Below, in pieces: positions 21,243 to 25,907 of a stretch of DNA of 39,130 bases. Under the pieces are notes generated by a model. That model worked only from the letters and a program-made list of their open reading frames with translations, did no database searches and was not told where the DNA came from. How positions within the stretch are numbered: the first letter of the stretch is position 1; each line of letters starts with the position of its first letter. Source of the DNA: a virus (lineage: Duplodnaviria; Heunggongvirae; Uroviricota; Caudoviricetes); the IMG/VR virus record IMGVR_UViG_2563366972_000008, positions 1-39,130 of that record; one strand, 5' to 3'. A program made the translations under genes and the position numbers.

Positions 21243-21518
21243 TTATGGTATACCGCGCCTCTGAACAGGGCGCGTTTGTGGCAACAGCTCGTCCCCTTCA
21301 CATAACCCGGCAGCAACATCCAGGAAGACCTGTCTGATGCTCCTTCTGGCTGCTGCCTCATAAAACTCCAGCGCGGCACCTTCAACACGGTCCAGCGAGA
21401 TGTCCAGGTCAAAAATTTCACCGTCAAAGCGTTTTTTGTCCCGTAACGCTAAAGTTACCGTAACTTTATTCTCAAAATTGCGGATCCCTTTCACAATCAC
21501 TTCATAGTTTTGAGTCAT
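21243..21518 (-). CDS. Hypothetical protein between holin and endolysin
   Basis: 91-aa ORF whose ATG follows the holin stop by a few bases with a GGAGAG RBS in the holin 3' end; no hydrophobic segment. Confidence 0.5.
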   Translation of the reverse strand: MTQNYEVIVKGIRNFENKVTVTLALRDKKRFDGEIFDLDISLDRVEGAALEFYEAAARRSIRQVFLDVAAGLCEGDELLPQTRPVQRRGIP

Positions 21519-21522
21519 TGAA

Positions 21523-21738
21523 TTACTCTCCCCGTGCAGCCTTACGCTTGTCTTCTCTGATTTTGAAGTACAGATTTGTCAGATAAGTCAGGAAGCCCAG
21601 AACCAGACTCCCCAGTACACCAATCGCAGCCCACTGTGAAGGACTGACCTGATCAAGCCACTGTAAAAACCAGTAGCCAGCACTGCCTGCGGAGGTGCCG
21701 TAGGCAATGCCCGTTGAAATTTTGTCCATGGATTTCAT
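21523..21738 (-). CDS. S: Pinholin, S21-like class II holin with dual-start motif
   Basis: 71-aa translation [27 protein letters not shown]... matches phage-21 S as recalled; two TM segments. Confidence 0.9.
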
Positions 21739-21802
21739 AGCCTCACCTCCGCAAATAACGGATGGCGTAGTTTTACACTGAGAAATGAAAGGGATTTGAA
21801 AA

Positions 21803-21823
21803 GAAAAACCCGCAAAAGCGGGC
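21803..21823 (-). terminator. Rho-independent terminator between tRNA array and lysis cassette
   Basis: Hairpin GCCCGC-tttt-GCGGG followed by a U-run on the minus-strand transcript. Confidence 0.4.
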
Positions 21824-22030
21824 GAAACGATATATACAGAAAGGAAAGCACTCTATCCAACAAACCAACCACAGTTAATCGGAATAAAAGCAGAGTGCTT
21901 ATGAATGATCGCCTGCCCGAAGGTTAGTATTTCTGCACAGCAATTTTGCAAAAAAAGGCGATCATTCATAACTTAAACGTCTTTCAGTCACTCCGGGATT
22001 TCCCATCATCGCAGACTGAAAGACTCTAAC

Positions 22031-22105
<75 letters not shown>

Positions 22106-22108
22106 ATA

Positions 22109-22184
<76 letters not shown>

Positions 22185-22186
22185 AC

Positions 22187-22263
22187 TGGACCGCCACCGG
22201 GGACTCGAACCTCGCACACTCAACTTAAAGGGTTGACGCTCTTTCCTGATGAGCTAGTGGCGG
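22187..22263 (-). tRNA. tRNA-like gene with noncanonical anticodon loop CCUUUAA (possibly Lys-UUU; C at position 33)
   Basis: Acceptor CCGCCAC/GTGGCGG, T-arm with TTCGAGT loop and encoded CCA; anticodon loop lacks the usual U33 and the T-stem has one mismatch. Confidence 0.55.
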
Positions 22264-22264
22264 T

Positions 22265-22340
22265 TGGTGGCCCTTGCTGGATTTGAACCAGCGACCTGGC
22301 GATTATGAGTCGCTCGCTCTCACCACTGAGCTAAAGGGCC
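22265..22340 (-). tRNA. tRNA with CAU anticodon, ileX/ileZ-like (Ile2 or Met)
   Basis: Acceptor GGCCCTT/AAGGGCC, anticodon loop CUCAUAA, TTCAAAT T-loop, CCA; resembles the Ile2 tRNA carried by lambdoid phages downstream of Q. Confidence 0.8.
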
Positions 22341-22460
22341 GGGCGCAGGATAATAACGTTACGAAATCAATGTTGCAAGCATTCAAGAATCACCTGGTTA
22401 AAAATTACCCTTACTTCCTCCACCAGCGCATTCACCCTGTCTATCCGAGATAAGTGGCAC

Positions 22461-22487
22461 AAAAAAACCCGCTTGATGCGGGTTTAA
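22461..22487 (-). terminator. Rho-independent terminator; candidate late-operon tR-prime
   Basis: Hairpin ACCCGC-ttgat-GCGGGT preceded on the forward strand by A7, so the minus-strand transcript has hairpin plus U7. Confidence 0.45.
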
Positions 22488-22530
22488 GTTGTGTGGCGAA
22501 GCGACCACTCTTAACAGATTAAGATAGTTT

Positions 22531-22560
22531 TTGCGTACGCGTTAGTGATTTTTTCATAAT
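22531..22560 (+). promoter_or_regulatory. Putative sigma-70 promoter for the plus-strand three-gene cassette
   Basis: TTGCGT, 18-bp spacer, CATAAT, then the first cassette ORF. Confidence 0.4.
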
Positions 22561-22572
22561 TATCTGTATCCT

Positions 22573-23484
22573 GTGGCTATTTCTCTTGCGCAAAGGATGC
22601 TTTTGATGACGCAGCAACTCGAAAACATGCCAATAACAGAAATCGAAATTGCCTACGGTGGAGAGGCATACGCAGATAATCAGATCGACGCGAAAACATT
22701 AGGCGAAGCCTTAACCTCTCTTAGTGCCCTGATTGAACACGCCGAAAAAATAATTAATGGCGAAACAGCAGAGCCGAAAGTCAACATCAAGGCAACAAAA
22801 GAAGGTTCATTTACTTTGCTTGTTGCTGTGATGGGGAGCATAAAAACTATTAACGCCCTTGGCCTCGTTGCAGGTGGTGGAGTTGCCGCAGGTGGCGTAC
22901 TCGGGATAATCGAATGGCTCAAAGGGCGTAAAATCAGCTCCATTGTCGTCGATGAACAAAAAGATACAGCAGAAATCGAAGTGGATGGTGAGAAGGTTAA
23001 ATGCAGTAACGACATTCAAAAATTAATAACCAGTCCAATCATCCGAAAAGAACTGGATAAATTAATCTATAAACCCCTGCAGACTGAAAAACCATCCACG
23101 TTCTCAGTTTCACAGCAGAAGCATAAGGTAGTCAGGGTGACGCAAGCTGAAGCAGTAAGTTTTAAAACTGCAAAATCCACCTTTGTCGAGAAAACGCACG
23201 TAACGACACGCCAAGCTAATGTACATTTTGCTAATGTTCGATTCAAGCAAGGCAAAAGCTGGGATATCATCCTGCCAAATGGCGAAGAAGTTAGCGCATC
23301 TATGAAAGATGAGGCTTTTCTTGAACGGGTTGAACACAACCAAGCAGCATTCTGTAAGGGTGATCTTTTTGTTGTAGAACTGACAGAAACAACAAAAGAA
23401 ACAAATGGCGCGCTGTCTAAACCACGCTATAGTATTACTAAGGTTATACGCCACAGAGCGGCGGCAGATAGGAAACTACTTTAA
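22573..23484 (+). CDS. Hypothetical protein A of accessory cassette: hydrophobic Gly-rich segment plus beta-rich C-terminal domain
   Basis: 303-aa ORF from GTG 22573; likelier start ATG 22606 behind an AAGGA RBS. Segment LLVAVMGSIKTINALGLVAGGGVAAGGVLGIIEWL; AT-rich codon usage unlike flanking phage genes. Confidence 0.7.
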   Translation: MAISLAQRMLLMTQQLENMPITEIEIAYGGEAYADNQIDAKTLGEALTSLSALIEHAEKIINGETAEPKVNIKATKEGSFTLLVAVMGSIKTINALGLVAGGGVAAGGVLGIIEWLKGRKISSIVVDEQKDTAEIEVDGEKVKCSNDIQKLITSPIIRKELDKLIYKPLQTEKPSTFSVSQQKHKVVRVTQAEAVSFKTAKSTFVEKTHVTTRQANVHFANVRFKQGKSWDIILPNGEEVSASMKDEAFLERVEHNQAAFCKGDLFVVELTETTKETNGALSKPRYSITKVIRHRAAADRKLL

Positions 23485-23487
23485 ATC

Positions 23488-23733
23488 ATGTCAATCCTAA
23501 GCATTATGCTTTACATCACTGTATTCATGGCTGTCGCAGCGACGGTCAGATATGCTGTGCTTAGGTTCTTGGTTTGGGTAAAGCCGAATGCGTATATTGA
23601 ACTAACCTACACCGATCCTGAAGGCAGAACCGCTAAAAGGAAAGTCAGCGTTAGAAACGAAAATGACGCAGAAGAGTTGGCGCTACTGCTACGCGAACTC
23701 AAAACTCGCAACGAAGCAAGTGCAGGAAGGTGA
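23488..23733 (+). CDS. Hypothetical small membrane protein B of accessory cassette
   Basis: 81-aa ORF starting 4 bp after gene A stop; one N-terminal TM helix then a charged tail. Confidence 0.6.
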   Translation: MSILSIMLYITVFMAVAATVRYAVLRFLVWVKPNAYIELTYTDPEGRTAKRKVSVRNENDAEELALLLRELKTRNEASAGR

Positions 23734-24120
23734 ATGGCGAACACTAAATCCTACCTGGCAATGCAGGCATGGTTTACCACCCTTATCACTGCGGGATTGA
23801 ATTTCCTTTTTGACTGGCTTCCTCAATTAGCCTTCTTCAAATCATTGGCGCCTGGAGCTGCTGTCGGCTTATCTCATGTGGTAATTCTTCTTATCGCTTA
23901 CATAGGTTTGCCTACGCTTAATGATGTAAGAATGAAAAGGGAAATAAAAACGGCCAGAAAATTCATCACGAACTGCCTGGCCAACCCTAACCTAACACCA
24001 GACCAAATTGCGCACTACAACCAATGTCTTATCGATCTAGACAATAAGCTATTAAAAAACATAAATATTCGTATTGATGCTTTATCTGACGCCGAATCGA
24101 AAGCTCAAGCAGACGAGTAG
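23734..24120 (+). CDS. Hypothetical membrane protein C of accessory cassette
   Basis: 128-aa ORF; ATG immediately follows the gene B TGA (TGAATG) with GGAAGG RBS; two predicted TM helices then a soluble helical tail. Confidence 0.65.
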   Translation: MANTKSYLAMQAWFTTLITAGLNFLFDWLPQLAFFKSLAPGAAVGLSHVVILLIAYIGLPTLNDVRMKREIKTARKFITNCLANPNLTPDQIAHYNQCLIDLDNKLLKNINIRIDALSDAESKAQADE

Positions 24121-24133
24121 TAACAGTCATAAC

Positions 24134-24493
24134 TTATGATAGAATCAAGCATATACATCCATCAATAAAGCCTAATGCAGTTTGCAGCTCCTTTCTTATA
24201 GTTCCATCTGAGCACCTGCGTTTCTTCGCGATTGAGCGTAGAGAAACACCAATAACAAAGTGAGCTATGAGCAGCTCATATTCCTCTGGTTTATACTTTC
24301 GCAACCGAGCCACACAACCGTCTATCATGATGCCTTCATCATCATCACACTGGAGACGTGACTTTTTGCCATGTGGCAAAAGCCCCTTGAAGCCCGCTGC
24401 TATCGGTTGCCAATCGACACCGCTATTTTCTGCTGCAGCCCATGCCCCCCAGCGATCTAAAACCTCATACATATCACGCCCCATTACCATCAC
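24134..24493 (-). CDS. Q: Late-gene antitermination protein Q (Q82/QuuD-like)
   Basis: Translation ...LDRWGAWAA...IAAGFKGLL...RLQCDDDEGIMIDGCVARL...CSDGTIRKELQ... resembles the phage-82 Q family as recalled. Confidence 0.85.
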   Translation of the reverse strand: MMVMGRDMYEVLDRWGAWAAAENSGVDWQPIAAGFKGLLPHGKKSRLQCDDDEGIMIDGCVARLRKYKPEEYELLIAHFVIGVSLRSIAKKRRCSDGTIRKELQTALGFIDGCICLILS

Positions 24494-24845
24494 CTCTGAT
24501 TTCGCAAATCTTCACGCCCAGTCGCCCACCAGGAACGAGCTGACCGCGCACAATATTGATTTCATCAAACTGCTCGTCGTCTATGAGAAGCCCCGCATGC
24601 GTCAGTGCATCCAGTGGAGCTTTCAGAATATTGTCCAGGTCACGACGGCGCTTATCCGGTGGCTCTGCAATAATCTTTATCGCCAGCCTTCCGGACAGGT
24701 TTAATTTCAGTCGCTGCTGGCGAACAATAAGTGCCACATCCCGGCGATAACGCTCACCGGCTTTTGATACAAAATATGTACTGCCACGACGACGCCAGTA
24801 GGTGTTCACCGTCGGCGGGTAAGGCAAAACAAACTCTATACGCAT
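24474..24845 (-). CDS. rusA: Holliday junction resolvase RusA
   Basis: 123-aa translation with RusA hallmarks (PPTVNTYWRR..., DKRRRDLDNILKAPLDALTHAGLLIDD). Confidence 0.9.
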   Translation of the reverse strand: MRIEFVLPYPPTVNTYWRRRGSTYFVSKAGERYRRDVALIVRQQRLKLNLSGRLAIKIIAEPPDKRRRDLDNILKAPLDALTHAGLLIDDEQFDEINIVRGQLVPGGRLGVKICEIRGDGNGA

Positions 24846-24857
24846 CAGTAACCTCTT

Positions 24858-25907
24858 TTACCCGAGCACGCCGGTTGCAAAGGCGCGATCAAGAAAACGA
24901 AAAATTAAATCAATCTGGGAACCATGCTTTTCTTCGAACGCCAGCGGATCCACATGAAGCTCGTTGTGATGCTCCCGACACAGCGGTAGCGTGAAAATAT
25001 CGTGGGCCTTTGTTCCCATCCCTCCCTGACCGTGACCAATCAGGTGATGGGGATCGTCGGCTGGCTGACCACAACACGCACACGGCTGTGTCTTCACCCA
25101 GCGCGTATATTTCTCATTTACCCAACGGCGACGTTTAGGTCGCCTCATGAAAGATTCCGGAGACTCCGGATCAACGGCAATGCTGACCACCGCCTTTTCC
25201 TGTGCTGGGTTCTGTGGCTGGTGGGTGTGAAGCAACGGCGCAAGATTTTTTGTGCGCTGCTTCAGTATGCTGGTGGCGGTCTGCTCTCCCGGTACGATGT
25301 CGCTTTCGCGGTACAAGGAGCGGATTTTTTCCGCACGCAACCCCAGTGAACGACGTAATACAGCTTCCGGTAGCGCGTCCGCCACCTGATTGCGGACCGC
25401 CCACCAGGATAATTCAGCCAGAGATAATTCACGCTCCTGCGTACCGCTTATTGCGTGACCGATGACGTCAATCATCCATGCTGACAGGTTTTGATGAGCA
25501 AGTTGCTCGAGTGATTCGGATGTCTGGTCACGCAGCTGGTTGTCGCAGTGCCAGCACAACACCATTGCGCCGGTACCATAACGGTGAATGACGGTTTCAC
25601 TGTGGTGATAATCGCCGTGTGGCCACTGGCAGGATTTAACATGGCGCAGTAACCAGTCAGACAATGCGCCAGCGCCACCAGCAGCACGAATCACTCGTTC
25701 GTCGCTGAAAAACGGCAGTAATGATTTATCCTCCGCCAGCGGCTGGCGAACGGCAGGAACGACCCCGGACGGCAGATTACGCATGCTTTTCGGTTCCGGC
25801 TCCACCAGCACACGCCCCTGCATAAACAAAGGCATCGCATCAGGACCGGGCCTGAAAAGTACAATCCCCAGACGGTGAGCAATTTCAGGAGTCACTAATA
25901 CCCGCAC
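24858..25907 (-). CDS. DUF968 / YdfU-like protein with C-terminal HNH-like Cys/His cluster
   Basis: 349-aa ORF (same length as Qin YdfU) with PCACCGQPADDPHHLIGHG...CREHHNELH near the C-terminus; between hok and rusA. Confidence 0.75.
   Translation of the reverse strand: MRVLVTPEIAHRLGIVLFRPGPDAMPLFMQGRVLVEPEPKSMRNLPSGVVPAVRQPLAEDKSLLPFFSDERVIRAAGGAGALSDWLLRHVKSCQWPHGDYHHSETVIHRYGTGAMVLCWHCDNQLRDQTSESLEQLAHQNLSAWMIDVIGHAISGTQERELSLAELSWWAVRNQVADALPEAVLRRSLGLRAEKIRSLYRESDIVPGEQTATSILKQRTKNLAPLLHTHQPQNPAQEKAVVSIAVDPESPESFMRRPKRRRWVNEKYTRWVKTQPCACCGQPADDPHHLIGHGQGGMGTKAHDIFTLPLCREHHNELHVDPLAFEEKHGSQIDLIFRFLDRAFATGVLG

Follow-up and report, generated by a model that had tools for sequence, protein, structure and literature searches.

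In phage lambda, late transcription is governed by a compact unit, PR′-qut-tR′, in which a promoter produces a short terminated leader (the 6S RNA) and read-through of the terminator requires Q that has been loaded at the promoter; Stx phages carry an equivalent unit. Lambda Q belongs to family PF03589, and the promoter that it controls abuts the Q gene. Accessory genes such as stx and bor cluster around the lambda-type late region, and stx and other known morons sit beyond the terminator, in the sense direction, and depend on Q. Here we analyze the late-control region of IMG/VR virus record IMGVR_UViG_2563366972_000008 (Caudoviricetes), whose full 39,130 nucleotides we call the window. In contrast to the morons just described, the three-gene cassette (genes A, B, and C) that follows Q in the window lies upstream of the proposed late promoter, is antisense to it, and would be Q-independent.

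Phage 21 and the DLP12 prophage of E. coli K-12 offer closer comparisons. In the phage 21 record (OL657228; locus L011 here), the Q stop codon at 1632 is followed by a TTGACA –35 element (1639-1644), a Q-binding element (QBE) of two 8-bp direct repeats (1647-1662), a –10 element (1662-1667), a start site at 1674, the pause element TAAGCTG (1675-1681), and a terminator that ends at 1723, beyond which lie tRNA genes and S21. In DLP12, quuD is followed by the antisense porin gene nmpC and then by the S21-type lysis genes essD-rrrD-rzpD, and a review cites Q-type control of this lysis operon (PMC7918800).

The window probably contains a Q-dependent late switch whose two halves have been separated, with the promoter, a candidate Q site, and a terminator lying beyond the cassette at 22553->22461. 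On comparative evidence, this arrangement is a variant of the known Q switch that is widespread, has an example in K-12, and doubles as a hotspot for cassettes. The likeness to phage 21 extends to a PF06530 Q protein, a QBE or candidate QBE between the –35 and –10 positions, a start site with a TAAG-containing element, a terminator ~50 nt downstream, and then tRNAs, an S21-type holin, and a signal-arrest-release-type lysozyme. Comparison with the phage 21 late region, to which an earlier sequence-only reading of this DNA had proposed an alignment, showed the same order and size of elements but no sequence homology between the promoter regions. The two phages also differ in that the phage 21 –35 element starts 7 bp past the Q stop codon whereas the corresponding distance in the window is 1.6 kb, in the length of Q (116-119 residues in the window and 162 in phage 21), in the palindromic rather than directly repeated nature of the candidate element, and in the lack of a TTGACA-like –35 sequence in the window. 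DLP12 belongs to the same small-Q clade as the window, its block between nmpC and essD is 82% identical to that of the window over 78 bp, and a late-strand start has been mapped there at the homologous A. It differs from the window in that its accessory gene is a porin with its own long upstream region and terminators rather than a defence candidate, in the core of its 17-mer, in its lack of tRNAs, and in being a defective prophage.

A conserved block beyond the cassette tracks Q

A block of ~95 bp that is conserved beside relatives of this Q lies in the window at 22553->22459 (minus strand). The Q stop codon and the 17-mer within this block are 1588 bp apart, and the block is therefore not directly downstream of Q. 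Its elements, together with a candidate promoter on the other strand, are as follows.

22529-22545, minus strand: 17-mer CTAACGCGTACGCAAAA containing the palindrome GCGTACGC; candidate Q-binding element, –36 to –20 from the proposed start
22526->22521, minus strand: alternative overlapping –10 hexamer TATCTT; TAnnnT at variable positions 3-8 in 78 of 87 unique block variants
22516-22521, minus strand: proposed late promoter –10 hexamer TAATCT; TAnnnT at variable positions 8-13 in 87 of 87 unique block variants
22505-22514, minus strand: TTAAGAGTGG, better conserved among all the Q clades than any other part of the block; spans the proposed start site
22509 (22514 with the other hexamer), minus strand: proposed late transcript start, second-last A of TTAAGAGTGG, by homology to the DLP12 start
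22493-22508, minus strand: predicted 5′ leader hairpin, GUGGU, 6-nt loop, GCCAC; minimum-free-energy and centroid structures agree
22461-22485, minus strand: predicted intrinsic terminator, tR′ equivalent, AAACCCGC-ATCAA-GCGGGTTT plus T-run; 8 pairs (5 G-C), 5-nt loop
22531-22560, plus strand: candidate cassette promoter, –35 TTGCGT at 22531-22536 (in the 17-mer), 18-bp spacer, –10 CATAAT at 22555-22560

Several observations link this block to Q. First, relatives of Q that were found by protein similarity in Stx1_499 (92%), Stx2a_1447 (87%), mEp460_4F5 (86%), and SfII (73%) are each followed by their own opposite-strand genes and then by a homologue of 22553->22459. Homology ends at or just after the Q stop codon in these relatives, where cassette-specific sequence begins, and in the aligned blocks CTAACGCGTACGCAAAA and TTAAGAGTGG are invariant and are separated by a semi-variable stretch of 14 nt; the leader that comes next is conserved, and after it lies a hairpin with a T-run, the stem and loop of which vary between loci. 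Second, the block is present regardless of the intervening cassette or the downstream module; toxin genes, a DNA methylase, or a class I holin lie beyond it in different relatives, and because these downstream genes are unrelated, the block travels with Q and not with the late module. Third, phages that have the same tRNA/holin module as the window but a different, longer Q lose homology at ~22378-22407 and lack the block, and in these phages the tRNAs follow Q within ~200 bp.

Finally, the separation of Q and block recurs widely. An exact-pattern scan of IMG/VR returned 120 loci, 96 of which also contained Q, and the gap from the Q stop codon to the block was 623-2892 bp in 94 of these 96, the two exceptions being E. 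coli chromosomes. Because these loci were selected by pattern, the invariance of the 17-mer and of TTAAGAGTGG among them is by construction. The block family was present in 3358 of 5426 complete E. coli genomes, and 37 complete E. coli genomes contained Q, cassette, and block at ≥99% identity with all open reading frames (ORFs) intact. In the sister clade represented by Stx2_95 (Q 57% identical), the block begins ~20 bp past the Q stop codon, which is the textbook arrangement. Judged by this distribution, the split arrangement is the normal state of this Q clade and not a one-off insertion. The sequence-only reading held that an inserted cassette separates Q from its likely late promoter and terminator. 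The separation is borne out by a conserved block that tracks Q from beyond the cassette in a phage-21-like layout, whereas "inserted" is true only by reference to the canonical layout of phage 21 and Stx2_95, an occupied gap being normal in this Q clade.

Proposed late promoter, candidate Q-binding element, and predicted terminated leader

Equivalents of the TAATCT hexamer are TATGCT in DLP12 and TACTCT in mEp390; Stx2_95 has CAGTAT, in which the key A and T are kept. We also considered the upstream hexamer TATCTT (22526->22521) as the –10 element, which would place TTAAGAGT as a pause element at +2 to +8. This assignment is disfavored by the conservation of TAnnnT in 78 rather than 87 of 87 variants, by loss of the alternative hexamer in DLP12, by Stx2_95, and by the start site mapped in K-12. 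Among the MG1655 starts mapped by Cappable-seq is one on the plus strand at U00096.2 576452 (PMC4782308 supplement). This start maps to the A of TTAAG-A-GTGG in DLP12, 7 nt past TATGCT. For conversion between U00096.2 and U00096.3 we used an offset of 777 bp, based partly on the old essD coordinate; as a check, the strong neighboring start at 576081 falls exactly 7 nt after TATTAT (–12 to –7). That neighboring start (score 90; L132 4359, plus strand) lies just outside the nmpC start codon, has TATTAT as its –10 element, and is directed toward the block and essD; it is a possible Q-independent source of DLP12 lysis-gene transcripts.

The 17-mer was identical in the homology-selected loci L006-L010 although their flanks diverge. 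Its core changes with the Q clade:

GCGTACGC: window
GCGGTCCGC: Stx2_95 (Q 57% identical) and mEp390 (55%)
ACGTACGT: DLP12 (50%)

All three cores are palindromes, and TGTTAAGAGTGG and the leader are constant across Q clades whereas the 17-mer changes. The 17-mer also occupies the site of the phage 21 QBE, and the Q21 and lambda QBEs both lie there. Based upon its position and its clade-linked variation, we assign the 17-mer as a candidate QBE. TTAAGAGTGG is conserved in L006-L010, DLP12, Stx2_95, and mEp390 and is a possible sigma-dependent pause element comparable to TAAGCTG of phage 21; with a start at 22509, however, it lies across the start and does not follow it. An A-rich tract at –46 to –38 is a possible UP element for the late promoter.

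A leader RNA of ~47 nt would end at the 22485->22461 hairpin. Leader and hairpin together (22509->22455) had a calculated folding energy of –20.3 kcal/mol (z = –3.6), which was equalled by 1 of 200 shuffled sequences; the 5′ arm of the leader hairpin is fixed by the pattern used in the locus search. A hairpin plus T-run occurs within ~100 nt of TTAAGAGTGG in 78 of the 87 variants, with several stems mutually non-homologous, and most of these hairpins end 47-64 nt past the start of TTAAGAGTGG. The chance density of terminators, estimated from shuffles, is ~0.06 per 100 nt per strand. An Rfam search of 21700-24600 at permissive thresholds detected tRNAs and noise only, with no known RNA family on the leader. 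RefSeq relatives annotate a 36-residue "antiterminator" coding sequence (WP_086259018.1), corresponding to window 22398-22508 on the minus strand, that starts at a GTG in the leader and runs through the terminator hairpin. NCBIfam gave no match for this sequence, which is probably a spurious reading frame that overlies regulatory RNA.

The sequence-only reading had named a hairpin with a U-run at 22461-22487 as the only one on the minus strand ahead of the tRNAs, and had left the late promoter either inside or beyond the cassette. Our scan also finds this hairpin to be the sole strong minus-strand terminator between Q and the tRNAs, with a stem that starts at 22485 rather than 22487. Three weak sites within the cassette (5-6 pairs, 3 G-C, U-run absent) are at chance level, since the regional total of 7 sites is within the range for shuffled sequences (4.6 ± 2.0). 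Comparison places the promoter beyond the cassette and not inside it, directly upstream of this hairpin. Two intervals had been singled out for promoter and qut comparison, of which 22488-22572 holds the conserved block and 24000-24133 contains no promoter-like conserved element.

Q is a small QuuD-like protein whose gene converges with the cassette

24134-24493, minus strand: Q, late antiterminator; ORF from GTG 24493, stop codon TAA 24136-24134; Pfam PF06530
24121-24133, no strand: intergenic gap, 13 bp between the convergent stop codons of Q and gene C; terminator absent

Q matched Pfam PF06530 with E = 3.8e-45 (153.1 bits against a cut-off of 26; 111 of 118 model positions covered) and phrog_79 ("anti-termination protein Q-like") with E = 4.2e-47. 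The GTG start gives 119 residues, and the start used in RefSeq relatives (ATG 24484) gives 116. Q is ~40 residues shorter than Q21 (162 residues), and its residues 12-90 matched the solved Q21 chains 6P18 and 6JNX weakly in phmmer (E = 0.002). Its identity to QuuD, encoded by the K-12 prophage DLP12, is 50%. By these family matches, Q is a small QuuD-like member of the Q21/Q933W family and not of the Q82 type. As PF06530 has been assigned to the Q21/Q933W family (Yin, Kaelber and Ebright, 2019), the appropriate phage for comparison is phage 21, and the Q82-type comparison suggested by the sequence-only reading does not apply. Reading in the minus-strand direction, genes for a DUF968 protein (24858-25907) and RusA (24474-24845) precede Q, and the cassette, tRNAs, holin, lysozyme, and Rz follow; this order places Q at the end of the nin/early-right region, ahead of the lysis genes. 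A search inside Q for a paQ-like CII-type antisense promoter motif (TTGYN6TTGY) gave no match.

Q and cassette gene C converge, as had been noticed from the sequence, with 13 bp between the Q stop codon (24136-24134) and the TAG stop codon of C (24118-24120). The absence of a terminator at this junction was also confirmed, both by the terminator scan and by the folding of 24080-24180, which was no better than that of shuffled sequence (z = +1.3 and +1.2 for the two strands). With no terminator at the junction, early transcription continuing beyond Q would cross C, B, and A in antisense and reach the block, and cassette transcription continuing beyond C would enter Q in antisense.

The gap is a hotspot for cassettes that point against Q

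The 96 gap sequences formed 35 DNA clusters, in which essentially all large ORFs were opposite in strand to Q, and the last cassette gene ended ≤48 bp from the Q stop codon in 29 of the 35 types. Family scans (PADLOC, Pfam) covered 66 representative gap proteins. PADLOC matches were mostly to the candidates PDC-M53A/B, PDC-S42, and HEC-04, with additional matches to type II and C5 methyltransferases; a C5 methylase with an AAA ATPase (AAA_15/AAA_21), RelA_SpoT with NA37, a metallo-beta-lactamase fold, and DUF4325 were also among the contents. Judged by these statistics, the gap between Q and its promoter is a recombination hotspot for accessory cassettes that point against Q. In a recurrent pattern, cassettes in L100, L034, L120, and L091 pair a RelA_SpoT-domain protein or other partners with a ~366-residue homologue of NA37, a nucleoid-associated protein.

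This hotspot resembles one described in another phage group at another position (PMC9122126, 2022), where, as here, numerous small and mutually unrelated cassettes occupy one fixed site between conserved phage genes; known or candidate anti-phage systems are enriched there, and candidates also occur among the gap contents of the present set. It differs in that it splits a regulator from its DNA target and in that the cassettes share one orientation and apparently one half-promoter. The split arrangement is already exemplified in DLP12 of K-12, and we found no paper that treats the position as a hotspot; literature searches aimed at a hotspot between Q and the late promoter returned no description of one, which is not proof of novelty.

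Of the 35 non-homologous cassette types, 25 have a TAnnnT hexamer at a spacing of exactly 17 bp from TTGCGT of the 17-mer, and 31 have one within ±1 bp of this spacing. Many of these hexamers are close to TATAAT, and the sequences diverge fully right past them. Usually 45-60 bp separate the 17-mer from the start of the first cassette gene, a distance too short to accommodate an independent cassette promoter. Most cassettes therefore appear to use a promoter whose –35 element (TTGCGT) is in the 17-mer, with a predicted start near 22567 in the window, ~58 bp from the proposed late start and divergent from it. A shared half-promoter would explain the uniform orientation of the cassettes, and it places the cassette –35 element inside the candidate Q site. 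Among the Cappable-seq starts listed, no minus-strand start in DLP12 matched the cassette promoter; nmpC there is far from the block.

Two relatives lack the cassette. In TUM9757 (L004, 2720-2820), it has been deleted between 8-bp GATGCTTT direct repeats (window 22596-22603 and 24076-24083), which fuses the 5′ end of A to the 3′ end of C and brings the block to a distance of 108 bp from Q. In Combat2C1 (L006), which has a Q that is 99% identical, Q is joined to the block at a TTATGA repeat (24132->24127 and 22559->22554) that is exact over 6 bp and matches at 7 of 8 positions with flanks, and window-type TGATTTTTTCATAA is kept. We considered these loci as original empty sites, but the retained A and C ends and window-type flanks are best read as the results of deletions of this cassette. 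The occupied gap looks ancestral within this Q clade. Genes for an ADP-ribosyltransferase and a subtilase-B toxin lie downstream of the block in Combat2C1, where Q would control them.

Proposed switch and alternative interpretations

From sequence anatomy, conservation, linkage to Q, and hotspot statistics, all of which were observed directly, we infer promoter activity, start sites in this phage, Q binding, termination, and any defence function. The proposed unit would comprise, in order on the minus strand, the A-rich tract, the 17-mer, the –10 element, a start at ~22509, a leader of ~47 nt, and the terminator. Without Q, polymerase starting at ~22509 would halt at the 22485->22461 hairpin. 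With Q bound at the 17-mer and loaded on polymerase, transcription would read through this terminator and a second one at 21823->21808, both of which late transcripts must pass, and enter the late genes. Q acts in trans on DNA, and distance should thus not impair the switch. In the lysogen, the cassette, which fills the 1.56 kb between Q and this unit, would probably be transcribed from a sigma-70 promoter that diverges from the late promoter.

A number of points weigh against this scheme. The late promoter lacks a recognizable –35 element, the hexamer at –35 to –30 being TAACGC, and a generic consensus promoter scan of 21400-25000 called neither proposed promoter, with 4 matches against 4.9 expected by chance. 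Two –10 candidates overlap, and the invariant one sets the start inside TTAAGAGTGG, without a clear pause element downstream; the K-12 start that anchors this choice belongs to a defective prophage and has a weak signal (relative read score 1.7). The 17-mer is palindromic, unlike the Q21 QBE, in which two 8-bp subsites form a direct repeat. Invariance of the 17-mer and TTAAGAGTGG is independent evidence only in L006-L010, DLP12, L133, and L134, and that of the 17-mer could derive partly or wholly from the –35 element of the cassette promoter; the A-rich tract, for its part, could be an UP element of the late promoter and not part of the cassette promoter. Under loose criteria, hairpins occur at the Q junction of other cassette types on the late strand in 17 of 35 and on the cassette strand in 20 of 35, and antisense read-through into Q is thus not general, as about half of these types have a junction hairpin.

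In one alternative reading, the block is only a promoter and operator for the cassettes, joined to a terminator that shields the tRNA/lysis module, and is not a target of Q, with late transcription starting elsewhere, for example upstream of the tRNAs. A cassette-strand promoter fits the block well, a –35 element is missing from the late-strand promoter, and a promoter-like TTGCAA-17-TATTAT sequence is present at 22378->22350. We nevertheless judge this reading distinctly unlikely. The block has the same late-strand features where the cassette is absent (Stx2_95, L006) and is also found in DLP12, in which the cassette gene is 364 bp away and has its own upstream region; TAnnnT on the late strand does not vary, DLP12 has a mapped late-strand start, and the layout mirrors phage 21. 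Moreover, the 22378 site belongs to a tRNA module common to phages with other Q types.

Decay of a defective prophage, in which the cassette has uncoupled Q from the late genes, is suggested by DLP12, a cryptic prophage with the same layout and an IS5-interrupted nmpC. This explanation is very unlikely given the 37 complete E. coli genomes in which Q, cassette, and block are ≥99% identical with all ORFs intact, the occurrence of the split layout in 94 of 96 loci, including the inducible or isolated phages SfII, mEp460, and Stx1- and Stx2-converting phages, and the intact ORFs for holin, endolysin, Rz, HNH, and terminase proteins downstream; as Q works in trans on DNA, gene distance need not matter. 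Least probable of the readings weighed here is a late promoter directly downstream of Q as in lambda, overlapping the 3′ ends of Q and C, with the block being something else. That layout is the textbook one, and the consensus scan did find a promoter-like minus-strand TTGATG-18-TATCAT sequence with 9 of 12 matches at 24165->24136, but this site is inside the Q coding sequence, promoter-like matches in the region are at chance (4 versus 4.9), relatives have no Q-linked element conserved past the Q stop codon, and, with no terminator for 1.6 kb after Q, the transcript would cross three genes antisense.

We prefer the separated Q switch. A broader extension of it, which we put forward tentatively and regard as rather unlikely as a whole, is that QuuD-like lambdoid phages use the gap as a dedicated site at which accessory and defence cassettes dock, each joining a shared promoter that has its –35 element in the Q-binding palindrome, with Q as a bidirectional switch between lysogen-protective and lytic gene sets. 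Under this extension, Q that accumulates after induction would load at the late promoter and occlude the cassette promoter, silencing the defence or abortive-infection genes of the prophage itself as the late program starts, and Q and the cassette, being transcribed convergently, would further interfere with each other.

If the cassette promoter does overlap the Q site, a prophage would have a simple route to silence its own defence genes in lytic growth. The block family includes Stx1- and Stx2-converting phages, in which Q-dependent transcription controls toxin release. For annotation, the late promoter would often be 0.6-2.9 kb from Q, which corrects an assumption of adjacency. The gap could also be mined for new anti-phage systems, as P2/P4 hotspots were, given that it holds at least 35 cassette types, many with unassigned function.

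Cassette genes

22606-23484, plus strand: gene A, 292 residues, ATG 22606, ORF open from GTG 22573; PADLOC PDC-S42
23488-23733, plus strand: gene B, 81 residues, N-terminal hydrophobic segment by eye; phrog_27630
23734-24120, plus strand: gene C, 128 residues, two hydrophobic segments by eye; phrog_26468 (function unassigned)

Gene A matched PADLOC PDC-S42 (E = 3.3e-53, model positions 4-294 of 302), phrog_3243, and NCBIfam NF053583, a "LAPAL motif-containing putative phage structural protein" (225 bits, cut-off 60). The PADLOC name (defence candidate) and the NCBIfam name (structural protein) conflict; the location of A in an antisense accessory hotspot argues against a virion role. The predicted cassette start near 22567 favors ATG 22606, which is the RefSeq start and has AAGGA upstream, over GTG 22573, which is too near the predicted start. 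Genes B and C matched no family beyond PHROGs of unassigned function, and C had no Pfam, PADLOC, or NCBIfam match; both look membrane-embedded. B is unannotated in most RefSeq relatives, but an 81-residue homologue occupies the same position in L152.

The A-B-C order recurs in diverged form in the same hotspot (L057, L084) and in the unrelated phage locus L152 (3989-5479), which lies beside lysis genes and has an A protein that is 47% identical. In every context examined, A is followed by homologues of B (81 residues) and C (126-129 residues). By this co-occurrence, A-B-C is a three-gene unit, and the single-gene listing of PDC-S42 in PADLOC is not matched here. The cassette is a candidate anti-phage defence module.

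tRNA and lysis module

22031-22340, minus strand: four tRNA genes (Ile2-CAT, Lys, Thr, Gly) by ARAGORN, Rfam, and RefSeq; start of the late/lysis module
21808-21823, minus strand: second predicted intrinsic terminator, GCCCGC-TTTT-GCGGGT plus T-run, between tRNA-Gly and the holin gene
21523-21738, minus strand: S21-type holin, Pfam PF04971

Genes for a YdfR/DUF1327 protein, lysozyme, Rz/Rz1, an HNH protein, and terminase lie beyond the holin gene. The tRNA at 22265-22340 was called Met (CAT) by ARAGORN and is annotated as tRNA-Ile in RefSeq relatives; it is presumably of the lysidine-modified Ile2 type. The promoter-like TTGCAA-17-TATTAT sequence at 22378->22350 (9 of 12 matches, minus strand) is just upstream of the first tRNA, within the shared tRNA module, and the tRNAs may thus be expressed independently of Q.

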